This document shows, one piece after another, positions 1 to 11,855 of a stretch of 11,855 nt of DNA. The DNA is from a virus. Taxonomy: Duplodnaviria; Heunggongvirae; Uroviricota; Caudoviricetes. How positions within the stretch are numbered: position 1 is the stretch's first letter; the number at the start of each line of letters is the position of its first letter. The stretch lies in the IMG/VR virus record IMGVR_UViG_2675903621_000013, positions 1 through 11,855 of that record; one strand, given 5' to 3'. The notes beneath the pieces are model-generated. The model made no database searches and was not told the origin of the DNA. It saw only the letters and a program-made list of their open reading frames with translations. A program made the translations under genes and the position numbers.

Positions 1-1615
1 CTTCATCCGCAGGCGTGGGATCGGCTTTCATACGGGCATAGAGAATTTCTTTTGCGGTGTCCGTTCCCACTTCACACAGATACACGCCCCGCTGATTGCG
101 GGTTTTTGGCATGGTGATCACCGGCTTGCCATAGACAGATACGCCTTTTACCGGCAGCACCCGGAAAACACCGTGTTTTTTTGATCTCTGATAAACAATT
201 TCACCATCGATCCCCCCGGTGTCCCAGCAGACACGGGAAATAGTCATTTCGGTGCCATCCGCATGGCGGTATTTTTTGTTGATCGCCGCATCCACACGTA
301 ACAGCGTCTCTTCCTCATCAGGACGCCCCATAATGATGATTTTATCCACCAGAAAGGCTTCCTCTCCCGGAGCCCATCCCCAGACATACATCTCAAAACG
401 GTTTCGCTGCGAGTCAATGCCCGCCGTCAGATAAACCACCCGGGCAGGCACCGCCGCCGTGTAACGCACCACCTTATCCATCAGTACCTGGTGATCGAGT
501 TTTTCGCCCACGGCCTCTTCCCAGGTCTCGCCCAGCGTGGTGTTCACAAAGGTTTTCAGGCCGTTGGGATCTTTCAGTGCATCCAGCCAGTCATAGACAA
601 TCTGTACCCAGGTGGTGAACGGACTGTACGCCGTCCAGATATGGAACGTGATGGAGCGCGGCGGCGGAATTTCATCACCCCGGGCGCTGAAAAACGTCAG
701 ACCGTCACGGGTCCACATGCCCGTGTTTTCACAGATCCACCGCCCGTTACTCTGGTCAAGCTCAGACTGATGGATCACACAGCCATGATGCTCACAAAGG
801 TAGAAAACACTTTCTGGCTTATTCTTCTCCCACTTAAGACCGAAAGGCGAGGCATCATCGCCAAATTTCAGATACTGCTCCTCCCCACAGTGCGGACAGG
901 GCACATAAAAACGCATGAAGTGTGCCGACTCGTTAGCGGCTTTTTCGATCTGGCAGGTGCCTTTGATTTTAGGCGTCGAGCCGCGAATGGATTTTGGCCA
1001 CACCGACCCCTCAATACGCTTATCCCCCAGCAGGGTTGGCGAGCCCTCTTTTTCGACATCCGGCTCGAACGAGGAAAGTTCGTCATAGCAGACCACGTCC
1101 ACGGATTTTTCACGGTAGTTTTTGGCGGCAGCGCCGCCCAGGCACCAGAAACCGACGCCCGATGAAAAGCGTTTCAGCGTGAGAGTATTGTCACGATGTT
1201 TACGACCCAGCCATGGGGAAAGGTCTTTCAGGCATGGCACGTTCCGAATCGTCGCCTCCACGTGAGACTTCATAAAATCTTCAGCGGCAGAATCCGTGGG
1301 CTGAAAAAGCAGACTGTTTCGGGATTTATGCTCAATAAAATACCCGACCACCCCCAGCAACATCTTTGTATAGCCAACACGGGCAGATTTAATCAGGTTA
1401 ACCGTGCGAACCTGGTCGTTACCCATACAGTTCATGATGGCGATCTGGAATGGCAGCGTTTTCCATTCTCCCTCACCATATGAAGATTCTTTAGGCAGAT
1501 AATAATTTTGATCAGCCCATTCAACTGCCGTCATTGGTACAACCCTGACCAGAGGCTGCAGCGCAACCGAAACGGCAGCCATCATATTATTCAGTTGTTG
1601 CTCTGATATATTCAT
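1..1615 (-). CDS. A: Terminase large subunit, lambda gpA-like; N-terminal ~538 aa present, C-terminus lies beyond the window start
   Basis: Minus-strand translation from ATG at 1613-1615 (MNISEQQLNNMMAAVSVALQPL...VEWADQNYYLPKES...KRFSSGVGFWCLGG...CPHCGEEQYLKFGD...FVNTTLGETWEE...) is open to position 1 and aligns along its length with lambda gpA as I remember it. Its start lies 26 nt upstream of the Nu1-like stop, as in lambda Nu1/A. It is absent from the ORF track because it runs off the window edge. Confidence 0.93.
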   Translation of the reverse strand, partial: MNISEQQLNNMMAAVSVALQPLVRVVPMTAVEWADQNYYLPKESSYGEGEWKTLPFQIAIMNCMGNDQVRTVNLIKSARVGYTKMLLGVVGYFIEHKSRNSLLFQPTDSAAEDFMKSHVEATIRNVPCLKDLSPWLGRKHRDNTLTLKRFSSGVGFWCLGGAAAKNYREKSVDVVCYDELSSFEPDVEKEGSPTLLGDKRIEGSVWPKSIRGSTPKIKGTCQIEKAANESAHFMRFYVPCPHCGEEQYLKFGDDASPFGLKWEKNKPESVFYLCEHHGCVIHQSELDQSNGRWICENTGMWTRDGLTFFSARGDEIPPPRSITFHIWTAYSPFTTWVQIVYDWLDALKDPNGLKTFVNTTLGETWEEAVGEKLDHQVLMDKVVRYTAAVPARVVYLTAGIDSQRNRFEMYVWGWAPGEEAFLVDKIIIMGRPDEEETLLRVDAAINKKYRHADGTEMTISRVCWDTGGIDGEIVYQRSKKHGVFRVLPVKGVSVYGKPVITMPKTRNQRGVYLCEVGTDTAKEILYARMKADPTPADE

Positions 1616-2096
1616 CGAGTAAATCCGGTAATTTATCCCCTGCCCGCGCACACTGATTTGCCCCCTTAGCAATAAGGGTTTTCAGATGGTCAAGATGGCG
1701 CGGTGTTAAATCAGGAAACTGTCGCTGCATGGATAAAGGGATGGAATCAAGCGTACTGGATAACGCCATTGCCAGCTTACTGAGGGCAAAAATACAGAAC
1801 CCGGTGTCAATAAGTTTTCCTTTTGACACCTCATTTTTTAGCTGCTGTGTAACAGCCTGTTCTGCTGTCAGTTCCCATCTGGCAATAAGCAATTTCTCCT
1901 CATAGTCGTCTTCGCTATCGCCATCAGGCACATCGTTTTTACTTCTCCTCAGATACGATATGTAAAAATCGCGCCAGGCATCCAGATCCAGTTGCCCTCG
2001 CTTATTCGATATCGGGGCACCCGGCAATTTCTGCAATCTGCGAAGCTGGCGATCGGTCAGACTTAAATGCCTGGCAACTTCAGTCTGCGTAGCCAC
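1587..2096 (-). CDS. Nu1: Terminase small subunit, Nu1-like
   Basis: 169-aa ORF whose C-terminal half (FCIFALSKLAMALSSTLDSIPLSMQRQFPDLTPRHLDHLK) resembles lambda Nu1 (FCTFVLSRIAGEIASILDGLPLSVQRRFPELENRHVDFLK, from memory). Sits immediately downstream of cos and overlaps the large-subunit start. Start codon reads GTG at 2094-2096, preceded by GAGGTGAGGA. Confidence 0.88.
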   Translation of the reverse strand: MATQTEVARHLSLTDRQLRRLQKLPGAPISNKRGQLDLDAWRDFYISYLRRSKNDVPDGDSEDDYEEKLLIARWELTAEQAVTQQLKNEVSKGKLIDTGFCIFALSKLAMALSSTLDSIPLSMQRQFPDLTPRHLDHLKTLIAKGANQCARAGDKLPDLLDEYIRATTE

Positions 2097-2136
2097 TCCT
2101 CACCTCGCAAAAACTCTCACCTCACAATCACAACAA

Positions 2137-2220
2137 AACCGGTCATGTCCGGTTCACAGAAGACCTGTTTTTATATTTTTCATATAGTTAACTTGCAGAG
2201 AAACCGGACATGGATCCCGG
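2137..2220. promoter_or_regulatory. cosB-like terminase-binding region: inverted 9-mers CATGTCCGG (2144-2152) and CCGGACATG (2204-2212) flanking an AT-rich spacer
   Basis: Seen directly: an 18-bp palindrome AACCGGTCATGTCCGGTT at 2137-2154 and the reverse-complement 9-mer at 2204-2212, about 50 bp apart, lying between cosN and the Nu1 start where lambda has its R elements and IHF site. Functional assignment is inference. Confidence 0.4.
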
Positions 2221-2249
2221 AAAATTTTCATAAATAGCGAAAACCCGCG

Positions 2250-2261
2250 AGGTCGCCGCCC
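2250..2261. other. cosN, lambda-type 12-nt cohesive-end site (GGGCGGCGACCT on the minus strand)
   Basis: The reverse complement of 2221-2262 reads GGGGCGGCGACCTCGCGGGTTTTCGCTATTTATGAAAATTTT, matching the lambda left end (GGGCGGCGACCTCGCGGGTTTTCGCTATTTATGAAAATTTTCCGG) as I remember it. The reverse complement of 2262-2280 (GGCGATCCGACAGGTTACG) matches my recollection of the lambda right end. Confidence 0.82.
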
Positions 2262-2460
2262 CGTAACCTGTCGGATCGCCGGAAAGGACCCGCAAAATGA
2301 TAATAATTATCATCTACATGTCACAACGTGCATCTACGCCATCAAACCACGTCAAATAATCAATTATGACGCAGGTATCGTATTAATTGATCTGCATCAA
2401 CTTAACGTAAAAACAACTTCAGACAATACAAATCAGCGACACTGAATACGGGGCAACCTC

Positions 2461-2694
2461 ATGTCAACGAAGAACAGAACCCGCAGAACAACAACCCGCA
2501 ACATCCGATTTCCAAACCAGATGATTGAACAAATTAACATCGCTCTTGTTCAAAAAGGGTCCGGGAATTTCTCAGCCTGGGTCATTGAAGCCTGCCGCCG
2601 GAGACTGTGCTCAGTAAAAAGAGTTTCGCCTGAAGCAAACAAAGAAAAGAGTGACATTACTGAATTGCTCAGAAAACAGGTCAGACCAGATTGA
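2461..2694 (+). CDS. Small ribbon-helix-helix-like protein (resembles the ylcI-type small proteins next to cos in E. coli lambdoid prophages)
   Basis: 77-aa ORF. The segment RNIRFPNQMIEQINIALVQKGSGNFSAWVIEACRRRL has the beta-strand then helix pattern typical of CopG/Arc/MetJ RHH proteins, with a basic N-terminal tail. Similarity to ylcI is from memory and unverified. Confidence 0.55.
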   Translation: MSTKNRTRRTTTRNIRFPNQMIEQINIALVQKGSGNFSAWVIEACRRRLCSVKRVSPEANKEKSDITELLRKQVRPD

Positions 2695-2751
2695 AGCAAT
2701 TTAGATAATCGTGCAGACTACGCCCCCTCATATCACATGGAAGGTACTACA

Positions 2752-3162
2752 ATGGCTCAGGTTGCCATTTTTAAACAAATATTCGATAAAGTGCGAAATA
2801 ATTTAAACTATCACTGGTTTTATTCTGAACTAAAACGTCACAATGTCTCACATTACATTTACTATTTAGCCACAGAGAATATTCATCTTGTTCTTGAAAA
2901 CGATAATACGGTTTTAATAAAAGGACAGGGTAAGGTTGTAAATGTAAGATTTTCAAAAAATAAATGCCTTATAGAAGCCACCTTAAAAGGATTCAAATCA
3001 GGAGAGTTATCATTTTACGAATACAGGAAAAATCTTGCTACAGCAGGGGTTTTCAGATGGATTACAAATATCCACGAAAACAAAAGGTATTACTATACCT
3101 TTGATAATTCATTACTCTTTACTGAGAACATTCAGAACACTACACAAATATTTCCGCACTAA
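2752..3162 (+). CDS. DUF1398-like hypothetical protein (ybcV-like moron), AT-rich
   Basis: ORF track gives 2737..3162; the ATG at 2752 (MAQVAIFKQ...) has a GGAAGG Shine-Dalgarno 8 nt upstream whereas 2737 has none, giving 136 aa. The gene is visibly AT-rich relative to flanking phage genes and is transcribed opposite to the late operon. Family assignment is from memory. Confidence 0.65.
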
Positions 3163-3469
3163 ATCATAACGTCCGGTTTCTTCCGTGCCAGAACCGGACT
3201 CGCTGGCATGATGAAATATGTGTACCCGGTAACCCCGGTGTGCATCGTTTTTGATTATTCCCCCACACTTGTGCAGAAGGAGTTCCCCGTCAGGCTACAG
3301 TCATAATTAATGCAAGAGTACAGCGACGATACAGCGCACAGAAATAAATCAGGTATCCATTGACTTCACAAAGACGGTGCATAGCATCGACTGGAGTAAT
3401 TGCGTAAATTGAACTCTTGGCACACTTTAGCCACCGGCGAATCTTCAGCGGATTATCCTTGGCCGGTTT

Positions 3470-3934
3470 TTATCTGAGGCATTGCTCTCGAATGTATAGC
3501 TGTGCCCCTTCAAGTTGTTTTTGCATTATTATCAGTCGCGCTCTGAGGGTGAAATAATCCCGTTCAGCGGTGTCTGCCAGTCGGGGAGAGGCTGCATTAT
3601 CCACGCCGGAGGCGGTGGTGGCTTCACGCACTGACTGACAGACTGCTTTGATGTGCAACCGACGACGACCAGCGGCAACATCATCACGCAGAGCATCATT
3701 TTCAGCTTTCGCATCAGCTAACTCCTTCGTGTATTTTGCATCGAGCGCAGCAACATCACGCTGACGCATCTGCATGTCAGTAATTGCCACGTTCGCCAGC
3801 TTCAGTTCTCTGGCATTTTTGTCGCGCTGGGCTTTGTAGGTAATGGCGTTATCACGGTAATGATTCAGCCCCAGACTAAGCGCACCACAGGCCACCAGCA
3901 GGGCAATGATGACCACGCACAGTACGCGGTTCAT
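3470..3934 (-). CDS. Rz: Rz i-spanin (inner-membrane spanin), lambda-type
   Basis: 154-aa product ...[111 protein letters not shown]... is near-identical to lambda Rz as I remember it. Confidence 0.95.
3532..3714 (-). CDS. Rz1: Rz1 o-spanin (outer-membrane lipoprotein), embedded in Rz in the +1 frame
   Basis: 60-aa product [60 protein letters not shown] has a lipobox (VVGC), a proline run, and near-identity to lambda Rz1; it is nested entirely within Rz. Confidence 0.9.
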
Positions 3935-3935
3935 T

Positions 3936-4034
3936 TCACCACCAGCGTATCTGACCGATGAAATAACCGGAGGCCATAATCACAAACACCAGCCAGATAA
4001 GAATGAACTTCCAGGTGGATAATTTTTCAGCCAT
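3936..4034 (-). CDS. Candidate 32-aa single-pass membrane peptide, translationally coupled to Rz
   Basis: My own translation of the minus strand: ATG GCT GAA AAA ... TGG TGG TGA gives [38 protein letters not shown] Shine-Dalgarno lies 8-9 nt upstream, and the TGA stop sits 1 nt before the Rz ATG. Not in the ORF track (below its length cutoff). Confidence 0.35.
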
Positions 4035-4109
4035 CACTCGAATCTCCCGAATCAGTTTGCTAAAATCAAACACACTTTCTCCTTTGACTTTTCCGGAGTC
4101 AGGAAACAC

Positions 4110-4143
4110 AAAACCCCGCTTGGTGCCAACAAACGGGGTTTTT
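4110..4143. terminator. Bidirectional intrinsic-terminator-like hairpin between endolysin and Rz
   Basis: AAAACCCCG (4110-4118) pairs with CGGGGTTTT (4134-4142) around a 15-nt loop. It is followed by TTTTTACTTTTATT on the plus strand and by TTTTGTGTTT on the minus strand. Confidence 0.5.
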
Positions 4144-4232
4144 ACTTTTATTCACTTACGTTTCGCCAGTTCGCAGGATTTCATGTTATCCGCCCGCGTG
4201 GCCATGCTTTATTTTTCAGCAAAATATTCTGC

Positions 4233-4766
4233 TTATCTGTCGATACCCCAGCACGCCAGCGCGCTCTCCTGGTCACGACGGGATACCTGACCGTAGCAGT
4301 TGTTTGAACGAATACGGCAGTCTCTGCCACCGTCCTTAATCCACCAGCGAATCGCCTCACACGCTCCCCTGCGATCACCTGCATTAATTCGTTTATAAAA
4401 CGTCGACGGGAAACACTTACCGGGACCAATGTTGTACGGACAGAATGACGCGATCCCCGCTTTCTGGGGTTCGCTCAATGGCACTTTGATGTTTTTCTCC
4501 ACCCACGCCAGCGCTTTATCACGCTCAATGGCGTTAACCTGGTCGCATTTTTCCTTCGACAACTTCATGCCCGGAACGACAGGTTTGCCATCCACCATGA
4601 TGGCACCACGGCAGATGGTCCAGATACCTGCACCATCACGGTATGCCGTGGTGTGATTGCCTTCCTTTTCATCCAGAAACTGGTCGAGAATGTCAGGCGC
4701 AGACGCACCAGCGGCAATCAGCGCCAGAACGGCAGCCGACAGGCCGTATTTGATTTTGGTGTTCAT
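4233..4766 (-). CDS. R: SAR endolysin (T4-lysozyme-family muramidase with N-terminal signal-anchor-release domain), phage 21 R / Qin rrrQ type
   Basis: 177-aa product with an Ala/Gly-rich weakly hydrophobic N-terminus (YGLSAAVLALIAAGASA) and an E-x8-D-x6-T catalytic spacing (EGNHTTAYRDGAGIWT), close to the phage 21 R E-8-D-5-T triad. No Shine-Dalgarno upstream; the start is 36 nt after the preceding ORF. Confidence 0.93.
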   Translation of the reverse strand: MNTKIKYGLSAAVLALIAAGASAPDILDQFLDEKEGNHTTAYRDGAGIWTICRGAIMVDGKPVVPGMKLSKEKCDQVNAIERDKALAWVEKNIKVPLSEPQKAGIASFCPYNIGPGKCFPSTFYKRINAGDRRGACEAIRWWIKDGGRDCRIRSNNCYGQVSRRDQESALACWGIDR

Positions 4767-4802
4767 GGATATATTAAATATTCAGCCGCTGTCCCTGGCC
4801 CA

Positions 4803-5360
4803 CTAAATACGCACTTTAAGATAAGTCAGCCCCGGATGAAGCCAGTAAGCCGGCACTTTTTTAAAGGGCGGATTATCAAAATCACGAAGAAGAGCCTCCC
4901 GCACAACTGCATCCTTGTCCGCACCACTGGCCAGCGCTTCAATCTCAGCAGCTATCTGCAGATATCCCATGCAACGGCCAACGCGCTTCATCAGCCCCTG
5001 CTTTTTATTGTTCTTCAGGTAATCAATGGCAAATTCAATGAGCTCCTCACTGTGCTGGTGCGATGGAGGTGTTACTTTCCCATTTTCTGAGATGGTTATT
5101 TTCCCGGCATCACCGGATACAACAAAGGATGGCCGGTTACACTCCCATTCCAGCTCACTGAAATTATCATTATGAATACTGAAACACTCTGCGAGATTTT
5201 TGCTCATCACTTTCCGACAATAATCGTCAAACGCAGCAAACTGCTCATCGCGGCGTTTTTTTTCATCTTCAGAAGGCATCAGCGTCGACAGTTTTTTATT
5301 CAGTTCAGCAATTTCATTTTCCAGGCGACTGAAGCGCTGATTCATTTCTTCATGGTTCAT
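4803..5360 (-). CDS. Hypothetical 185-aa protein inserted between holin and endolysin (same position as ydfR in the Qin prophage)
   Basis: GGGGAGAG Shine-Dalgarno upstream of the ATG at 5358-5360, tightly packed against the holin stop. The N-terminus is coiled-coil-like (EEMNQRFSRLENEIAELNKKLSTLMPSEDEKKRRDEQ). No family recognised by eye. Confidence 0.75.
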   Translation of the reverse strand: MNHEEMNQRFSRLENEIAELNKKLSTLMPSEDEKKRRDEQFAAFDDYCRKVMSKNLAECFSIHNDNFSELEWECNRPSFVVSGDAGKITISENGKVTPPSHQHSEELIEFAIDYLKNNKKQGLMKRVGRCMGYLQIAAEIEALASGADKDAVVREALLRDFDNPPFKKVPAYWLHPGLTYLKVRI

Positions 5361-5363
5361 TAT

Positions 5364-5579
5364 TCACTCTCCCCGGGCGGCCTTACGCCGGTCCTCTCTG
5401 ATTTTGAAATACAGGTTAGTCAGATATGTCAGCAGCCCAAACAGCAGACTTCCCAGCACGCCTATTGCCGCCCACTGAGACGGGGAAACCCTGTCCAGCA
5501 ACTGCAGGAACCAGTAGCCCGTTCCCACCGCTGACGTGGTGTATGACACACCTGTTGTGATTTTTTCCATCTGGTACAT
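5364..5579 (-). CDS. S: Pinholin, phage 21 S21-type, with dual-start motif (antiholin from M1, holin from M4)
   Basis: [71 protein letters not shown] (71 aa) resembles S21 as I remember it. GGGAG Shine-Dalgarno upstream of the ATG at 5577-5579. The ORF-track start at 5657 is an upstream in-frame extension without an RBS. Confidence 0.9.
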
Positions 5580-5610
5580 ACCCCGTCTCCCGTTATCCGG
5601 AAGCTGACAA

Positions 5611-5644
5611 CAATAAAAAAAGCCACCAGTTAAGTACTGATGGC
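5611..5644 (-). terminator. Intrinsic-terminator-like hairpin (minus strand) between nanS-p and the lysis cassette
   Basis: On the minus strand, GCCATCAG..CTGGTGGC (8-bp stem with one mismatch) is followed by TTTTTTTATTG. Confidence 0.45.
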
Positions 5645-5729
5645 TCTGATAACTCATGCAGGCATCTCAGACGACCCACTGACACTACCGGTGAGTTTAA
5701 CGATACCTTCCATTTGACTGGCTCACTTT

Positions 5730-7583
5730 TTATGATGATGCCGGTGCATTTATCTCCAGCACCAGACTTTCTATCTCAACGCCATACGCTGCATTTTTGG
5801 TAATATCCGTCAGCGTCAGCGCATTCAGCCCCAGTGTCAGACTGTCTTTTATGACCTGGAATGCCGGGCCAGCCACTCCATTCAGTTTCGGAGTAACCGT
5901 GGCACTGCCGGCGGTGAACACCAGCTCCAGCGTCTGCCAGTCGTTACTGTAATTCCCGAACTCGCCCAACTTTGTGTTTCCTGCTTTCTTGTGATGCATC
6001 AGATTCAGTTTGCCGTCTGTGGTCTGGGTGAAGAACGACATCAGGAACGGGTTACCGGTACCCGTCATCGCCACGACGTCAGGTAACGCTACATCGGTAT
6101 ACAGATAAATTCCCAGACCGAACTGATTGTTGGTCAGTGCGCCTGACAGTCGAAACTTACAGCTCAGTCTGCCACCCCGTGTCAGCAGGGAGACTGCGTC
6201 ATCCACCGGGCGCGTCAGGGACCAGGTTTTATTGCTCTGCTTGGCGATCTTAAATACACCACCCGACAACTGAATTCCGCCGTCCTTAATGGTCCAGCCC
6301 TGCGCAGCAGCCTCTCCGGCTGTCGGCAGCAGGGAGATTGTGCGAACGGACGTATCTGCAGACGGACCCGATGGCGTGTCGCCGCCGGGCGAGGGTTTGA
6401 TTTCCGGCGCCTTACCACTGATGAAGGCTGAGGTGCGCCCGGCTGCGTTCAGAATAGCGGTTGCCATACGATCGGGAATAATGCCACGACGCGCCCATGA
6501 GCTGAAATGCGTCGGGCGATTTGATGATACCCAGTTTTTGTTCGTTCGGGATGCCGAACCGTAATAACCAGACCCGACAATATCAGGATCTTCTGACGGG
6601 TTGTTTGTCGGTGTATTAACTCCGCTACCATCGGTCATAAAGGGAACAAAATAAATCTGCTGGGATTCTTTACCTTTATATGCACCATATACCACTTCAT
6701 ATTGCGTACCGTGTTCTTGTTTCCACGCGTATGTCGTGTCGCCACAAATCCAGGGGACTGATGCCGGACTTCCACCGTGACACTGCGCCGCCAGCCCGGC
6801 AAGGTCAGCACGGAACTGCTGTACCATTGCAAGAAATGCTGCTGGCTGCTGGGCGTAACTGGCATTCGTCATATCGAATTCCCCCTGCATCCAGCATATC
6901 GCCAGCAAAACGTTTTTCGGGTTTTTCTGCAATGCTGCCTTCGTGCGGAAAAGCAGATCCTGATATAACGGCTTACCCACTCCCCAGCGAGCCGAATCCT
7001 GACTGGCCCCCGTGGACTCGCTGAATGTCCCCTCCGTGCCCTGGGTGAATGCCGAACCACCACGACAGCATGGTACCAGCAGGATCCCCGCATTATTAGG
7101 GATATACGGAAGCAGTTTTTTGGCAATATGTAAGCCCTGTCCGACACAGCCGTACTGCCCTTTGCTCAGGTCAGCCCGGGGATGGTTAATCGTACTCATA
7201 TCCTGAACATCATGCAGACAATGGTCAGCAGGAATGATGTCGTTAAATACGCATACTTCACCACCGGGAGTCACTGTGTTACGACGGGCCAGTTGCTTAA
7301 TGCGCGGATGGGGCGCATCGTATGAATCCGGAAGCGGAAGCCCTTCACCGTAAGCCATGGCATTGGACTGCCCGGCCAGTACGATGACGTAGTACCACTC
7401 CGGCTCAGTTGCACCACTGACGACCACATCACCTTCTGCTGCAATCGCCTGCATCAGGGTATAAGGGGTTATGGCCACCGGACTACCAAACGGCTGCCAG
7501 CCCTCTTTCAGTTTATGTGTCAGCTTTTCCGCAAGATCTGACGGCGACGCCGCCCTGACAACATCATAGTGTTTAAATGCCAT
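5730..7583 (-). CDS. nanS-p: NanS-p-type prophage sialate O-acetylesterase (DUF1737 N-terminal domain, SASA/SGNH esterase domain, C-terminal domain)
   Basis: Long ORF with the GQSN esterase motif (VLAGQSNAMAYGEG), sitting between the tRNA/toxin slot and the holin as in Stx phages. The ATG at 7581-7583 (MAFKHYDV...) has a GGTGGA Shine-Dalgarno; the ORF-track start at 7598 (MVERTM...) has none. Confidence 0.88.
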   Translation of the reverse strand: MAFKHYDVVRAASPSDLAEKLTHKLKEGWQPFGSPVAITPYTLMQAIAAEGDVVVSGATEPEWYYVIVLAGQSNAMAYGEGLPLPDSYDAPHPRIKQLARRNTVTPGGEVCVFNDIIPADHCLHDVQDMSTINHPRADLSKGQYGCVGQGLHIAKKLLPYIPNNAGILLVPCCRGGSAFTQGTEGTFSESTGASQDSARWGVGKPLYQDLLFRTKAALQKNPKNVLLAICWMQGEFDMTNASYAQQPAAFLAMVQQFRADLAGLAAQCHGGSPASVPWICGDTTYAWKQEHGTQYEVVYGAYKGKESQQIYFVPFMTDGSGVNTPTNNPSEDPDIVGSGYYGSASRTNKNWVSSNRPTHFSSWARRGIIPDRMATAILNAAGRTSAFISGKAPEIKPSPGGDTPSGPSADTSVRTISLLPTAGEAAAQGWTIKDGGIQLSGGVFKIAKQSNKTWSLTRPVDDAVSLLTRGGRLSCKFRLSGALTNNQFGLGIYLYTDVALPDVVAMTGTGNPFLMSFFTQTTDGKLNLMHHKKAGNTKLGEFGNYSNDWQTLELVFTAGSATVTPKLNGVAGPAFQVIKDSLTLGLNALTLTDITKNAAYGVEIESLVLEINAPASS

Positions 7584-7843
7584 GGTTCTTTCCACCATCT
7601 GAAAAATGATTCTTTAAAATACCTGACATGTAATACAGAAAAAACACAAAACCATACCTTAAATAAAAACCTCATCATCAAGCAGATATGCATGGATAAA
7701 CTACAAGACGAGATATAAACCACCCTGCATTTAAATAAACAATAAACAACATCAGAAAAATAATTCTGCTCTATGGTTTACAATCAAAAATATCATTTAT
7801 ACTTTTCAGAACATCACCAGCAAGGCATAAACAAGGAAACTAA

Positions 7844-8179
7844 ATGAAGTGGATTGTGATTGATACAGTTATCCAGCCATCATGCGGAATATCTTTTTCA
7901 GTCATATGGAGTAAAATAAAATTAATAATCTGGTATCAATCGGATGCTTTCTTACCTCCTGAAAGTATATTTACACTGACTCACACAGGTATCATGCTCA
8001 ATAACAAAGTGCTACCTGTAACCATTTACAACGTAGTACCATTCAATAAAACATTCTGGAATTTAATCAAAAACAGCCAGGAATGCCCTACAAATACAGA
8101 TAACGTATTGAATGAATGCTTTAATAACCGTTGCACTCTGCAAATATGTCCTTATGGGCTAAAACAACAAAGTCCATAA
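7844..8179 (+). CDS. Hypothetical AT-rich 111-aa ORF, divergent from the late operon
   Basis: AAGGA Shine-Dalgarno 6-7 nt before the ATG; possible sigma70 promoter upstream (TTTACA ... TATACT around 7766-7795). Cysteine-rich C-terminus ([26 protein letters not shown]). No minus-strand ORF of 60 aa or more anywhere in 7724-8626. No family recognised. Confidence 0.35.
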
Positions 8180-8196
8180 GGAGTTTACTCACATCT

Positions 8197-8235
8197 GACA
8201 AAATCAATATAAACAGCCCCTCCGGAGAGGGGCTG
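8197..8235 (-). terminator. Intrinsic-terminator-like hairpin (minus strand)
   Basis: Perfect 9-bp stem CAGCCCCTC / GAGGGGCTG (8214-8222 and 8227-8235) with loop CGGA. On the minus strand it is followed by TTTATATTGATTTTGT. Confidence 0.45.
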
Positions 8236-8626
8236 GAGAGTGGCGCTATGTGCCATTGCATGGTGCCGGGTGCCTCCCGGTGAATTCAGTACCAGCACCT
8301 GAATCCGCGATTATCCCATATACCTACTCGCTGATTGCCCCTCCGCACAGGGGGATTCACCATGCCAGTTTCTTTTAACAAACTCCCCGCAAACCAGACA
8401 ACAGTCAACCGCCTGAATTGTGAAGTATTTAAAAATTTCTCCCGCTAACTGATACCCGGCTAACAGTCTGGCGTTTTCTTTTTCAGCAACGGGAAAGCAA
8501 CAACCACCACACCCGCCACCAGCACACCGTCAGCCAGCACTGACATTATCCGGCTGCTGCAATGCCATTCACAAAAACAGTAAGCTATCACTTTTTACCG
8601 TAACAGGTGATAATCCAGATATGTAT

Positions 8627-8980
8627 CTACCCCAGATGAGTAATCCGAAGTTCATCCATACCACAGGTCCTGGCTATTCTGTTGTACTCCTGAACAAGAG
8701 CAAATAATTCTGAATTAGCAACCATGAACTCATCGCAAACCCTCTGTATAGCATCACTATTCAGAATAATAACGTCTCTTCCCGAAAGACGATCAGGAGT
8801 ACAGAACAAAACTGTAAAACGGCTGAAGGCCTTTGCTCGTGCTGCATTGACTATATCAATACGCTGCCTAAGGATGAAACACCCCGACGCCCCATCAATA
8901 TTCACTCTACCCACACCATATGAATGATAAATATTTAATACTGAAAAAACCATTAGACCGTATAACAAACACTCAATCAA
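8627..8980 (-). CDS. Hypothetical 117-aa ORF in the toxin slot (TTG start, no RBS); possibly a pseudogene or non-coding
   Basis: The ORF-track start is a TTG at 8978-8980. The first ATG (8951-8953) also lacks a Shine-Dalgarno. Same strand as the late operon, immediately downstream of tRNA-Arg. No family recognised. Confidence 0.3.
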   Translation of the reverse strand: MIECLLYGLMVFSVLNIYHSYGVGRVNIDGASGCFILRQRIDIVNAARAKAFSRFTVLFCTPDRLSGRDVIILNSDAIQRVCDEFMVANSELFALVQEYNRIARTCGMDELRITHLG

Positions 8981-9090
8981 TACTTAACAGAACTTTTATT
9001 TTTGACAAACATATAATATTTTCAACAATATCCTGAGCCAGGTATATTCCAGTATAAGGCTCTGCCGGAAGGAATCTGGAAGAATGAATA

Positions 9091-9167
9091 TGGCGCGTTG
9101 TACTGGATTCGAACCAGTGACCGATTGCTTAGAAGGCAATTGCTCTGTCCGGCTGAGCTAACAACGC
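9091..9167 (-). tRNA. tRNA-Arg (anticodon UCU)
   Basis: Minus-strand 77-nt sequence folds as a canonical cloverleaf: acceptor GCGTTGT/ACAACGC, D stem GCTC/GAGC, anticodon stem ATTGC/GCAAT with loop CTTCTAA, T stem ACTGG/CCAGT with loop TTCGAAT, and an encoded CCA. Confidence 0.9.
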
Positions 9168-9180
9168 TGAATACCGATAA

Positions 9181-9261
9181 TGGACCGCCATCGGGGACCA
9201 GCCCCCCGCACCAACAACCCTGTTATCGTGTCGTCTGCTCTTCCTGATAAGCTAATGGCGG
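9181..9261 (-). other. Degenerate tRNA-like element (possible pseudo-tRNA) between the two tRNA genes
   Basis: 81 nt with an encoded CCA end, a 7-bp acceptor stem (CCGCCAT/ATGGCGG), a D-stem-like GCTT/GAGC and a T-stem-like CGGGG/CCCCG, but a non-canonical T loop (GGCTGGT) and no foldable anticodon arm. Spacers to the flanking tRNAs are 7 and 13 nt. Confidence 0.3.
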
Positions 9262-9268
9262 TTTGTGA

Positions 9269-9344
9269 TGGTGGCCCTTGCTGGATTTGAACCAGCGACC
9301 TGGCGATTATGAGTCGCTCGCTCTCACCACTGAGCTAAAGGGCC
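9269..9344 (-). tRNA. tRNA with CAU anticodon, most likely tRNA-Ile2 (ileX/ileZ-like; lysidine-modified to read AUA)
   Basis: 76-nt cloverleaf: acceptor GGCCCTT/AAGGGCC, D stem GCTC/GAGC, anticodon loop CTCATAA, T stem GCTGG/CCAGC with loop TTCAAAT, encoded CCA. Close to E. coli ileX as I remember it. A Met identity cannot be excluded from sequence alone. Confidence 0.85.
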
Positions 9345-9393
9345 GGGAGCAGAATAATAATGGTGCGTAATTAATTCTGCAATCTCATCCGTT

Positions 9394-10443
9394 TCAAACG
9401 ATTAAATCCTGAACTTCCCTGACTGTCTGCTCAAAACGTCCGGTCTCCAGCTCAACACCAATCGCACGACGCCCCAGTGCCATCGCCGCTTTTACCGTTG
9501 AACCCGACCCCATGAAAAAATCCGCAACCAGATCACCAGGACGACTACTTGCGCTGATTATCTGCTGCAGCATTTCTGCCGGTTTTTCGCACGGATGTTT
9601 CCCGGGATAGAACTGCACCGGTTTATGTGTCCACACATCCGTGTACGGCACCTGCGCCGTCACACCAAAATACCGCCGCAGATGTTTATATTCACTCTGC
9701 AGCTCCGCATACTGTCGGTTCAGTGAAGTATACGTATCCACCAGCTGGTGGTGGGGCTTTTCCAGTTCCCCCCGCTGATGCTTCTCTTCTGCCACCCTGG
9801 CAAACAGTGCCTGTAATTTCAGATAATCGCTTTCGTTCGGCAACTGCCACTGACTGGCACTGAACCAGTGCGACACCATGTTTTTCTTTCCTGTGGCATC
9901 TGCAATCTGTTTTGCCGTTATCCCCGGGGCAGCGCGCGCATCACGAAAGTAAGCAATCAGCGGGGCCATCACATGCTGTTTCAGTGCCCTGCCCTTCGCC
10001 TCATACCCGGCATCTTTCGGACGATACGGCCCCTGATAATGTTCCGCGAACAGAATGCGCTCTGTGGCGGGGAAATACGCCCGCAGGCTTTCCTTGTTGC
10101 ATCCGTTCCAGCGTCCGGACGGCTTCGCCCAGATAATATGGTTCAGCACACTGAAGCGTTCACGCATCATGATTTCGATATCAGATGCCAGGCGATGACC
10201 ACAGAACAGGTAAAGACTTCCGGCAGGTTTCAGCACCCGCCAGAACTGCGCCAGACACTGGTCCAGCCACTTCAGGTAATCATCGTCGCCCTTCCACTGG
10301 TTATCCCAGCCCTCAGGCTTCACTTTAAAGTACGGCGGGTCCGTGACTATCAGGTCAACAGAATTTTCGGGTAACGACCGGATAAATTCCAGGCAGTCGG
10401 CGTTGATTAACTCACAACTGGATATTTTTACAGTATTAAGCAT
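9394..10443 (-). CDS. Beta-class amino DNA methyltransferase (N6-adenine or N4-cytosine), apparently orphan
   Basis: 349-aa ORF with the catalytic DPPY motif near the N-terminus (LIVTDPPYF) and the AdoMet-binding FxGxG motif near the C-terminus (DFFMGSGST). That motif order (IV before I) is beta-class. No restriction-endonuclease-like ORF is adjacent. Confidence 0.88.
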   Translation of the reverse strand: MLNTVKISSCELINADCLEFIRSLPENSVDLIVTDPPYFKVKPEGWDNQWKGDDDYLKWLDQCLAQFWRVLKPAGSLYLFCGHRLASDIEIMMRERFSVLNHIIWAKPSGRWNGCNKESLRAYFPATERILFAEHYQGPYRPKDAGYEAKGRALKQHVMAPLIAYFRDARAAPGITAKQIADATGKKNMVSHWFSASQWQLPNESDYLKLQALFARVAEEKHQRGELEKPHHQLVDTYTSLNRQYAELQSEYKHLRRYFGVTAQVPYTDVWTHKPVQFYPGKHPCEKPAEMLQQIISASSRPGDLVADFFMGSGSTVKAAMALGRRAIGVELETGRFEQTVREVQDLIV

Positions 10444-10580
10444 GGATCATTAAGCCTGTCTCTGATAGGCTCATTCTGCTTTTGCGCAAAGCAGTGGGCC
10501 TGAGGTTTGCTTGTGAACCCAACGCATGAGCAGATGGCTGGTGGGTGCCCCTAACACCCACCAGCCGCCCATTTACCACA

Positions 10581-10607
10581 AATAAAAAAGCCTTCACTGC
10601 GGAAGGC
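10581..10607 (-). terminator. Intrinsic terminator (minus strand) upstream of the methyltransferase
   Basis: On the minus strand, GCCTTC CGCAGT GAAGGC is followed by TTTTTTATTT (plus coordinates: A-run 10582-10589, stem 10590-10595 and 10602-10607). Confidence 0.55.
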
Positions 10608-10791
10608 GTCTGTAACAACCGAACTGATAGTCTGCCAGACCCGCCATAACCAGCTGGGTCAGTATTAACTGGCAGCGTTCGCGTGAAAGGTAAGTATTCT
10701 GCGCTATCTCCCCGACTGTCGCCGGTTCGGTAACGCTTAATTCATTAAACACCACTCTGGCGGTTTCTGTCATATCCTGCTGTTTTAGCAT
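10594..10791 (-). CDS. Small winged-helix protein, PapI/FaeA-like (65 aa from the ATG at 10789-10791)
   Basis: MLKQQDMTETARVVFNELSVTEPATVGEIAQNTYLSRERCQLILTQLVMAGLADYQFGCYRRLPQ shows the PapI/FaeA pattern (L..x..T..EIA..x..R..L..L...G). The ORF-track N-terminal extension to 10914 runs into a terminator hairpin and is rejected. The RBS is weak and the stop overlaps the downstream terminator stem, so coding status is uncertain. Confidence 0.45.
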   Translation of the reverse strand: MLKQQDMTETARVVFNELSVTEPATVGEIAQNTYLSRERCQLILTQLVMAGLADYQFGCYRRLPQ

Positions 10792-10913
10792 GTCTTTTTC
10801 CCTTTTCCGGTTAACGTGACACACCAATAACTCTTGTCGAAAAAGCCAGCAAGCTGAAAGAACGGTATTAATAACCACCAGCGAATTTATTGCGCTACTG
10901 TATATCGCGGACA

Positions 10914-10935
10914 CAAAAAAACCACCTTCCGGTGG
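10914..10935 (-). terminator. Intrinsic terminator (minus strand) about 80 nt downstream of the Q-like gene (tR'-like position)
   Basis: On the minus strand, CCACC GGAA GGTGG is followed by TTTTTTTTG (plus coordinates: stem 10922-10926 and 10931-10935, A-run 10914-10921). Confidence 0.55.
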
Positions 10936-11015
10936 CTTCCTTGTGCGAAAAAAACTTGCGTTTCGCCTCGCGATACAGCTTTGCGAAGCTTATACGGATT
11001 GAAGCAGTTTATTGA

Positions 11016-11567
11016 TCAGTTTGCAACATTTTTCTCTGTAACAAAAGCCATGCGCATGGGGGCATATAACATAAATTCAGATACCCCCAACCATTGATCA
11101 ATTCGGCGTCTGCACGTAACCAACGACCAATCAGGATGATCTGCATTTAACCTTTCGGCCATTTTCAGTTTGCTCATTCCCCGTCCTTCGTACCTTTGCC
11201 GGAGAACATTGATTAGCCCGGGATATTCCCCAAGCACCTCACTGATAACGCGATCAATAATCAACGCCTCTGTGTCTGTACAATGTGACAACCAGCTCTT
11301 CTGCTTTCCTCTTGTCATATCCCGAAAAAATGCCTCAAGTTCCGGTTTTTCCAGCCCGGATTTCTTCATTCTGCGTAAAACCTCATTAACTGCTGTTTTC
11401 GTCAGCTTTTTCGAAACCAGTAACCGGTTAAACATATTTCCGGATTTACCCCCACCGATATACGACCACCGCCCCCACATCCGTAATTTCCCCTGGATCC
11501 AGACTGCTTCCAGCGTGTTCAGGCGTAAATGTTCGCCGCTTTTGCCTGTAATTTCCGGATATATCAT
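11016..11567 (-). CDS. Putative late-gene antiterminator Q (Q21/QuuD-like family)
   Basis: Positional: immediately downstream of rusA and upstream of terminators, tRNAs and the lysis cassette, where Q sits in lambdoid phages. Contains an MWGRW motif resembling the WGxW motif I recall in Q21/QuuD-family antiterminators. The ORF-track start is a GTG at 11577-11579; the ATG at 11565-11567 (MIYPEITG...) is the more likely start. Confidence 0.6.
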   Translation of the reverse strand: MIYPEITGKSGEHLRLNTLEAVWIQGKLRMWGRWSYIGGGKSGNMFNRLLVSKKLTKTAVNEVLRRMKKSGLEKPELEAFFRDMTRGKQKSWLSHCTDTEALIIDRVISEVLGEYPGLINVLRQRYEGRGMSKLKMAERLNADHPDWSLVTCRRRIDQWLGVSEFMLYAPMRMAFVTEKNVAN

Positions 11568-11575
11568 ATTTACGC

Positions 11576-11855
11576 TCACTCACTCTCAATTTTGTAAATC
11601 TTCACACCCAGCCGTCCACCAGATACTGGCTGACCACGTACAATATTGATTTCATCAAACTGCTCGTCATCAATGAGCACTCCCGCATGCGTCAGCGCAT
11701 CCAGCGGTGCTTTCAGAATGTTGTCCAGGTCGCGACGACGCTTATCCGGTGGCTCTGCAATCACCTTTATCGCCAGCCTTCCGGACAGGCTTAATTTCAG
11801 CCGCTGCTGGCGAACAATAAGCGCCACAGCCCGGCGATAACGCTCACCGGCTTTT
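11576..11855 (-). CDS. rusA: Holliday-junction resolvase RusA (C-terminal part; start lies beyond the window end)
   Basis: ...PPDKRRRDLDNILKAPLDALTHAGVLIDDEQFDEINIVRGQPVSGGRLGVKIYKIESE matches the RusA C-terminal region (DRRRRDLDN...) as I remember it. The reading frame is open to the window edge. Confidence 0.85.
   Translation of the reverse strand, partial: KAGERYRRAVALIVRQQRLKLSLSGRLAIKVIAEPPDKRRRDLDNILKAPLDALTHAGVLIDDEQFDEINIVRGQPVSGGRLGVKIYKIESE

Follow-up and report, generated by a model that had tools for sequence, protein, structure and literature searches.

A conserved prophage cassette of a small winged-helix gene and a structured leader RNA upstream of an M.EcoGII-type methyltransferase gene

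What stands between the antiterminator gene and the DNA methyltransferase gene of a lambda-like prophage, and what is it for? The question is raised by positions 10444 to 10935 of IMG/VR virus record IMGVR_UViG_2675903621_000013, of which the stretch analyzed here, positions 1 to 11,855, is called the window. The Q-like gene, the segment, and the methyltransferase gene follow one another in that order, all on the minus strand, and features below are on that strand unless stated otherwise. An earlier note, made from the letters of the window alone, had read the segment as a complex regulatory leader and had offered either a PapI-dependent epigenetic switch or an untranslated RNA as its purpose. 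The description as a complex regulatory leader is supported and the anatomy is largely confirmed, but the PapI and epigenetic interpretation is rejected. We conclude from its conservation that a 65-amino-acid open reading frame (ORF), the spacer that follows it, and the methyltransferase gene are one conserved cassette. The pattern of covariation indicates a conserved, structured mRNA leader in the spacer, one with two mutually exclusive folds. We lean, if only slightly, toward the view that the cassette guards a toxic anti-restriction methyltransferase by layered silencing, with a logic like that of com-mom in phage Mu.

The ORF lies where the earlier note had placed it, at 10791 to 10594, with an ATG at 10791, a TGA stop at 10596 to 10594, and a Shine-Dalgarno sequence (AGGG) 8 nucleotides (nt) upstream of the start. 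Its product falls in phrog_331 (PHROG E value of 1.4e-37), carries the RefSeq names "hypothetical" or "TrmB family," and matched 495 protein clusters at an E value of ≤0.01 in a profile search. Compared with homologues of other genera, the ratio of nonsynonymous to synonymous substitution rates (dN/dS) is 0.07 to 0.2 with synonymous sites saturated, and differences at codon positions 1, 2, and 3 number 12966, 9919, and 22613, respectively, such that the third position dominates. An AlphaFold model has a predicted local distance difference test score (pLDDT) of 91 and the order H1-b-H2-H3-wing of a canonical winged helix. Because of the low dN/dS, the third-position changes, the Shine-Dalgarno sequence, and the confident predicted fold, we conclude that the ORF is a genuine protein-coding gene. 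We note that the invariance of the peptide RCQLILTQL in distant homologues is an ascertainment artifact, as the peptide was the search pattern, and it is not used as evidence.

Where the gene begins is annotated inconsistently. Conservation starts sharply at the ATG at 10791, and a 106-amino-acid version that starts with GTG (10594 to 10914) is a miscalled start, its nonconserved extension reaching as far as the T-run of the terminator before it. The longer version is nonetheless found in many database entries (among them P0007, P0014, and P0021), one of which is labeled "lipoprotein." An upstream ATGTCA was considered as an alternative start or upstream ORF and was rejected: its distance to the main ATG is no constant multiple of three, and the window has GTG there. 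Finally, neither the 106-amino-acid extension nor a 60-amino-acid ORF at 10436 to 10618 has a conserved frame or a family match, and both were discarded as genes.

The small gene keeps constant company. In Klebsiella, Salmonella, and Buttiauxella the same methyltransferase follows 149 to 150 nt after the ORF, and the cassette stands behind at least three Q families (DUF1133, PF06323, and PF06530). A scan of one genome per species gave 34 loci, from Escherichia to Proteus, Providencia, Mangrovibacter, Mixta, and Plesiomonas, of which 33 were informative; the methyltransferase began 339 to 356 nt after the ORF start in 32 of them, and the spacing held even where the small protein was only 41 to 63% identical. 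In the reverse test, the ORF was present 347 to 349 nt upstream in all 76 IMG/VR contigs picked by the methyltransferase alone, contigs that are close relatives of one another. Another IMG/VR scan, made with a methyltransferase alignment, returned near-identical loci only and is uninformative on distant methyltransferases, and the profile search with the small protein listed the best 120 of its 495 matches. The tie between a small winged-helix gene and a phage methyltransferase that the earlier note had drawn from one locus is thereby extended, at fixed spacing, across the Enterobacterales.

The spacer is conserved as an RNA. At 10593 to 10444 in the window, it measures 142 to 153 nt in 36 of 37 distinct sequences, the exception (L042) having a truncated ORF. 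The whole 150-nt spacer folds with an energy of −60.6 kcal/mol (z score of −3.8), and many positions, in whole blocks, are invariant in all 37 aligned sequences, including those whose ORF product is 41 to 63% identical. Rfam gave no family at the gathering threshold; the best match, to P26 with 24.2 bits where 36 are required, lies on the opposite strand. That match is driven by a single hairpin, P2, and nothing else between 10420 and 10960 exceeded 16 bits. The P2 hairpin (arms 10566 to 10555 and 10547 to 10536, 7-nt loop) is the GC-rich hairpin without a T-run of the earlier note, to which a 10-bp stem had been given; the stem is 12 bp and 100% complementary. It folds at −28.0 kcal/mol (z score of −5.75; 0 of 200 shuffles equal it), and it shows both-sided changes in 6 of 12 pairs with 93.9% of cells paired. 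Compensation is full: the arms read GGCTGGTGGGTG and CACCCACCAGCC in the window, GACTGTAAAAGTG and CACCTTTACAGTC in Proteus, and GGCTGGTAAGTG and CATTTACCAGCC in Plesiomonas.

Around P2 the leader can pair in two ways. In one, a three-way junction, P2 is joined by P1 and P3. P3 pairs TCTGCTCATG at 10534 to 10525 with CACAAGCAAA at 10515 to 10506 (core, TTCGCTCATG with CACAAGCGAA), and pair counts show four pairs altered on both sides, the column pair 56-82 occurring as CG in 15 sequences, AU in 6, UA in 5, and UG in 4. P1 pairs a segment b (ATGGGC, 10572 to 10567) with GCCCA at 10499 to 10495 and is 97.8% paired, with one compensatory pair (an A-U in L046). In the alternative fold, which is the minimum-free-energy structure in most loci, segment b instead pairs with GCTCAT at 10531 to 10526, forming helix b:d, in which 99.1% of cells are paired and all changes are one sided. 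In the same fold GGCCCAC pairs with GTGAGCC, a G-C pair becoming A-U in 8 sequences. The alternative fold also contains P6, a long-range helix between GUUCA-AAGC at 10518 to 10509 and GCUU-UGAUC at 10455 to 10445, the latter covering −12 to −2 of the methyltransferase AUG. In its conserved form, P6 joins GGUCA..AAGCG to CGCUU..UGAUC, which spans −13 to −2 relative to that AUG; it is 91% paired, and AAG:CUU becomes GGA:UCU in the Proteus group. Because they share strands, the two folds are mutually exclusive.

Both folds are better supported than chance pairing. An RNAalifold prediction on a MAFFT alignment gave one fold only; the three-way junction came from partitioning the sequences at anchor motifs, and both folds were then tested by pair counts. 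Of 500 shuffles, none reached the observed covariation score or paired-cell fraction for either fold, and slid registers paired 29 to 46% of cells versus 86 to 89% observed. In energy the two folds lie 3.8 kcal/mol apart on average (range, −4.3 to +12). Frequent G-U pairs show that it is the sense transcript that folds. An antisense RNA of the kind found in type I toxin-antitoxin systems was considered and rejected, as the G-U pairs are sense specific and antisense terminator tails are absent. A CRP site seen by eye (TGTGA...TCACA) has the wrong spacing, of about 65 nt, and motifs resembling boxA or ops are not conserved. Finally, an 8-bp hairpin, AGCCTATCAGAGACAGGCT, at 10471 to 10453 just 5' of the methyltransferase start (z score of −3.75) is specific to the E. 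coli lineage of the window and is not conserved in other genera.

The gene behind the leader is what would make such control worthwhile. It encodes a 349-amino-acid N6-adenine DNA methyltransferase (10443 to 9394; Pfam N6_N4_Mtase, E value of 5e-44), and motif order makes it β class: VTDPPYF at residues 33 to 39 (DPPY) precedes FFMGSGST at residues 309 to 316 (FxGxG). The protein shares 337 of 348 residues (97% identity) with the phage 1720a-02 enzyme, which the M.EcoGII report describes as a very similar relative of M.EcoGII (PMC5778455). By that identity the enzyme groups with M.EcoGI and M.EcoGII, which likewise are prophage borne, have 349 amino acids, and place DPPY before FxGxG. According to the same report, M.EcoGII (349 amino acids) methylates adenine in any sequence context, its constitutive expression is deleterious, and it is not expressed in the lysogen (PMC5778455). 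Moreover, homologues of M.EcoGI and M.EcoGII in two O111 genomes of Shiga toxin-producing E. coli (STEC) were predicted to be nonspecific, and no methylation that could be ascribed to them was seen (PMC6602927). Sequence-independent adenine methylation is thus predicted for the window enzyme from its relatives. Inspection of the leader alignment found no Shine-Dalgarno sequence for the methyltransferase 4 to 12 nt from its AUG. In the passages searched, the M.EcoGII report mentions silence in the lysogen only and neither an upstream gene nor a leader (PMC5778455).

Transcription would reach the cassette through two terminators. The stretch is the start of a lambda-like prophage late operon, as in Shiga toxin (Stx) phages and related lambdoid prophages. 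Its Q-like antiterminator gene (11579 to 11016; the start called by PGAP is an ATG at 11567) matches Pfam DUF1133 (E value of 3e-105), PHROG 753 ("anti-termination protein Q-like," E value of 2e-75), and Phage_antitermQ at 31 bits (cutoff, 26). The first terminator, of the tR' type, consists of CCACC-GGAA-GGTGG and seven T's at 10935 to 10915, as in the earlier note, and RNAfold extends it to 10939 (−13.1 kcal/mol; z score of −1.9 against shuffled sequence). It begins shortly 3' of the end of the Q-like gene at 11016, where a lambdoid late leader has its terminator. A GC hairpin with a T-run occupies the same relative position in nearly all of 38 aligned related loci, with differing stem sequences. 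The second terminator, T2, at 10607 to 10580 (GCCTTC-CGCAGT-GAAGGC followed by TTTTTTATTT; −8.9 kcal/mol, z score of −2.5), overlaps the end of the ORF, as the earlier note had said, and has that stop codon in the loop of its hairpin; the two arms covary across the Enterobacteriaceae even though the 5' arm is coding. Terminator-like sites number 3 versus 1.1 ± 1.0 in shuffles.

How might these parts work together? In the lysogen, transcripts would end at tR', and those that leak through would, in E. coli-type phages at least, be stopped a second time by T2. The residual leader RNA would take the stabler fold, in which GGUCA..AAGCG covers the region just ahead of the methyltransferase AUG. We propose that this closed fold keeps the enzyme silent, because it pairs the start region of a gene that lacks a Shine-Dalgarno sequence. 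Upon induction, Q-modified polymerase would pass both terminators, and the leader could then adopt the three-way junction of P1, P2, and P3, which removes the anti-start-site strand and would license translation. The winged-helix protein, which we infer to be the cassette's own regulator, may act on the leader RNA or on palindromic DNA and may limit enzyme synthesis to sustained late transcription. Such restraint would be of use with an enzyme of the M.EcoGII group, whose methylation of adenines in any context shields phage DNA against many restriction systems at a cost to the host.

Several observations weigh against this account. Purified M.EcoGII was active without the 65-amino-acid protein (PMC5778455). 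The protein is also acidic (pI of 4.6 to 5.6 in 7 of 8 sampled homologues), which is unusual for a nucleic acid binder. A σ70 consensus scan of 10300 to 11200 called no promoter-like site and thus found neither pR' nor an internal promoter. The T2 hairpin is absent in Proteus and Providencia; its long U-run is found only in E. coli-type loci and in L030 and L031, and a proper U-run is lacking outside the E. coli lineage. With respect to the folds, P6 owes its compensatory changes to essentially one lineage or two, namely, the Proteus/Providencia group and Plesiomonas, and the start site differs only modestly between folds, with 11.2 versus 8.3 of 16 nt paired. Finally, the ORF occurs without the methyltransferase, being followed by an AraC-family gene in two loci (L013 and L015) and by no methyltransferase gene in two others (L014 and L032). 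Three other explanations stay alive because of the acidity, the activity of M.EcoGII by itself, and the loci with the ORF only. Before turning to them, we ask which known systems the cassette resembles.

The closest functional analogue appears to be com-mom of phage Mu, and we favor that comparison. There, a small-protein gene lies directly upstream of, and is cotranscribed with, the gene for a late DNA adenine-modifying anti-restriction enzyme, the start site of the enzyme is held in an inhibitory RNA structure, and Com opens that translation-inhibiting structure in the mom mRNA (PMC6483171). Here too a small co-oriented gene lies upstream, and P6 is predicted to hold the start site. The likeness is one of logic: Com is a zinc-finger RNA binder, whereas the 65-amino-acid protein is a winged helix with no conserved set of four cysteines across homologues; Mom is not an S-adenosylmethionine (SAM) methyltransferase of this class; and no sequence or structural relatedness to the Mu system was found. 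A second parallel is provided by Aca1 and Aca2, small helix-turn-helix (HTH)-type proteins of phage counterdefense operons in which inverted repeats and conserved hairpins in the 5' untranslated region (UTR) restrain a costly gene at the DNA and RNA levels, Aca2 binding both the repeat DNA and the 5'-UTR RNA (PMC13551039). In contrast, the protein here is a winged helix, its gene is upstream rather than downstream of the presumed target, no promoter-overlapping repeat was found, and no homology to Aca proteins was seen, although no search was aimed at it. Controller (C) proteins are likewise encoded by a small DNA-binding-type gene beside a methyltransferase gene with a palindrome nearby. C proteins, however, are of the Xre type of HTH, bind a C-box that precedes the C gene itself, and set when a restriction enzyme is expressed; the 65-amino-acid protein is a winged helix, no restriction gene was found near the methyltransferase gene, and neither consensus pairing nor a palindrome was found upstream of the ORF.

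The leader between pR' and tR' of lambda (6S RNA) and StxS of Stx phages offer a last comparison. In both, a terminator just 3' of Q is read through only by Q-modified polymerase, and in Stx phages it heads the late operon that carries stx (PMC7547250). The equivalent here extends only from about 11015 to 10915. The ORF, T2, and the folded leader are a separate cassette, found behind several Q types.

A more ambitious version of the guarded-cassette account can be framed from these parallels. In it, the spacer would be an undescribed class of cis-regulatory RNA switch that gates an M.EcoGII-type methyltransferase, and the 65-amino-acid protein would be a dedicated trans effector that binds RNA, like Com, or both RNA and palindromic DNA, like Aca2. 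We offer that version tentatively, as one that is possible but rather doubtful.

Might the protein act on DNA instead? It could be a dimeric DNA-binding regulator, similar to a controller or Aca protein, with an operator at a palindrome, P4, 32 to 50 bp upstream of the methyltransferase start, the leader being kept for the operator and for mRNA stability. P4 (CTGCTTTGCGCAAAAGCAG, 10494 to 10476; −8.4 kcal/mol, z score of −3.3) is the 19-bp palindrome of the earlier note and sits, as stated there, about 30 bp upstream of the methyltransferase, ending 32 nt from the ATG at 10443. The perfection claimed for it is not borne out, as it consists of 7-bp arms (CTGCTTT and AAAGCAG) around 5 nt or, equivalently, of a perfect 10-mer, TTTGCGCAAA, that is shifted by one base relative to the outer arms. 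In many other loci, though, P4 is a perfect 16-bp palindrome (GCTTTAGCGCTAAAGC or GCTTTAACGTTAAAGC) or reads GCTT(A)TGTGCACAAAGC, and its centers (AGCGCT, AACGTT, and GTGCAC) change yet stay self-complementary, of which a hairpin loop has no need. The changing center may point to a dimer that recognizes the DNA duplex. Moreover, the protein has a canonical winged-helix fold, in which helix 3 carries R37, R39, Q41, T45, and Q46 and the wing carries K/R-R. Set against an operator are its setting and its history: no promoter was detectable near P4 by consensus scan, Q-modified polymerase arrives from upstream such that a repressor could work only as a roadblock, the protein is acidic, the half-sites are offset by 1 nt in the window and in the Proteus group, and P4 variants follow the methyltransferase clade rather than the winged-helix clade. 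The covariation of P2, P3, and P6 would also be left unexplained. We consider a DNA operator unlikely, if still credible.

Perhaps, alternatively, the small gene has nothing to do with its neighbor. It could be an independent moron, expressed in the lysogen from a conserved motif, stopped at T2, and unrelated to the methyltransferase, with the leader being simply the methyltransferase 5' UTR. The boundaries of the module speak for this idea. On its 5' side, between the upstream terminator and the ORF, lies a bipartite motif (10853 to 10816; CTTGCTG-N12-(C)AGAGTTAYNTGTRTGTCAC, also written CTTGCTG-N12-CAGAGTTAYNTGTRTG) that is conserved from Escherichia to Plesiomonas and has promoter-like geometry (TTGCTG-17-TATTGG), and on its 3' side lies a terminator. 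At either end the module is delimited by Chi sites (GCTGGTGG) and homology breakpoints. One Chi octamer, at 10882 to 10875, is upstream of the ORF, and many BLAST homology blocks begin there (query positions 198/199, which are window positions 10883/10882). Another, at 10565 to 10558, is in one arm of P2, the other arm having a plus-strand copy at 10537 to 10544. The two minus-strand copies flank the ORF, and the breakpoints of the ORF module (10883/10882 and 10557 to 10554) fall on Chi. In the three aligned exceptions in which the methyltransferase is missing (L013 to L015), the junction is likewise inside the Chi-containing P2 hairpin. The earlier note had overlooked the Chi octamers in both hairpin arms and at 10882 to 10875, the bipartite motif, the hairpin at 10471 to 10453, and the unity of the spacer as one conserved fold.

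An independent gene, however, need not be followed at near-constant spacing by the same methyltransferase in 32 of 33 species loci, with protein identity down to 41 to 63%, or precede it in all 76 contigs that were selected through the methyltransferase. Moreover, the −10 element of the motif is poor (TATTGG or TATCTG, both lacking a T at position 6), the σ70 consensus scan does not call it a promoter, and RNAalifold predicts no structure for it. We regard a moron as improbable, even though some phages carry the ORF with an AraC-family gene or without the methyltransferase. The AraC-family regulator found in place of the methyltransferase has 237 amino acids (L013, 3551 to 4264; L015, 3434 to 4147) and occurs in some E. 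coli prophages and in the Stx2k phage phiSTEC1575. With respect to Chi in general, the window has seven copies on the sense strand of the late genes (10882 to 10875, 10565 to 10558, 9745 to 9738, 8523 to 8516, 4348 to 4341, 3946 to 3939, and 3899 to 3892) and two on the plus strand (9744 and 10537), with about 0.18 expected per strand; both plus-strand copies are palindromic partners of sense-strand ones.

The protein might instead touch the enzyme and no nucleic acid at all, serving as an inhibitor or antidote of the methyltransferase or as a dimerization or targeting subunit. Its acidity would suit a protein partner, as would its strict co-conservation with a toxic enzyme. Moreover, the best Foldseek matches of the model are the N-terminal winged helices of SAM-dependent O-methyltransferases (RedM, PigF, and SibL), followed by IclR and MarR. 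Because the E values are near 1e-3 and the matches are mixed with winged helices of IclR, MarR, and SelB, they indicate a generic fold only. Furthermore, M.EcoGII works alone in vitro (PMC5778455). A protein partner seems to us quite unlikely.

The reading offered by the earlier note, a PapI-like protein and a phage methyltransferase forming a methylation-dependent epigenetic switch, is now highly improbable. A small winged-helix gene does adjoin a DNA adenine methyltransferase gene, and the winged helix that the note had recognized stands, albeit as a generic one; the PapI/FaeA signature does not. FaeA (Pfam PF04703) was not matched at an E value of ≤1, the only Pfam matches being TrmB, MarR_2, and DprA_WH, all below the cutoff, and NCBIfam gave no PapI/FaeA match. 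In a phmmer search of PDB sequences, PapI was absent at an E value of ≤10, YraP being the sole chain matched; hhalign against a PapI sequence gave a probability of 1.3%; and PapI was absent from the Foldseek top 50. PapI and FaeA share small size and a general winged-helix fold with the protein but belong to fimbrial operons with paired Dam GATC and Lrp sites, whereas this gene is in a prophage late operon. A single GATC occurs between 10444 and 10935, at 10445 to 10448, which is −5 to −2 of the methyltransferase AUG; it is kept in 36 of 37 loci and belongs to the invariant UGAUC that the closed fold is predicted to sequester. Finally, the enzyme groups with nonspecific methyltransferases that are silent in the lysogen, and therefore no target motif is expected in the palindromes; the suggestion that they carry one has lost its basis.

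That the whole segment is a noncoding pR'/tR' leader, as the earlier note had held in reserve because it lies directly 3' of Q and opens with a terminator, can be set aside almost completely given the substitution pattern, Shine-Dalgarno sequence, confident fold, and 495 protein clusters of the ORF.

The cassette sits among genes that are familiar from Stx phages. The minus-strand order is RusA (ending at 11579), the Q-like gene, the segment, the methyltransferase gene, two tRNA genes, an STnc100-like small RNA, a NanS-p-like esterase gene, and lysis genes. The two tRNA genes, at 9269 to 9344 and 9091 to 9167, comprise one with a CAT anticodon, labeled tRNA-Ile or tRNA-Met in relatives, and tRNA-Arg(TCT), an arrangement that is found upstream of stx in Stx phages. 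The STnc100 match of Rfam (8205 to 8394; 132 bits versus a threshold of 47) lies between the tRNAs and the esterase gene, the slot of the stx genes in Stx phages. On the plus strand, a 111-amino-acid ORF at 7844 to 8179 resembles the anti-adapter IraM, a name that PGAP gives to the equivalent ORFs in L001 and L015. We know of no Q-binding elements defined for Q proteins of the DUF1133 type.

The cassette is very common and uncharacterized. A 701-nt query around the segment matched 2529 of 5426 complete E. coli genomes, about half, and 28 phage records. In phiP27 the tRNAs and stx2e follow the ORF and the methyltransferase gene, and many further Stx2 phage records have both genes. Because the module is upstream of stx2 in these phages, T2 and the folded leader probably also affect read-through into the toxin genes. 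The leader itself looks like an undescribed RNA switch, as two incompatible covarying helices are a hallmark of a switch and the leader has no Rfam match. M.EcoGII is a widely used enzyme, and the cassette provides a concrete and testable account of how a phage keeps such a methyltransferase gene off and then turns it on. Ultimately, a tiny winged-helix protein so tightly linked to an anti-restriction enzyme may be a new example of the small regulators that guard costly counterdefense genes of phages.

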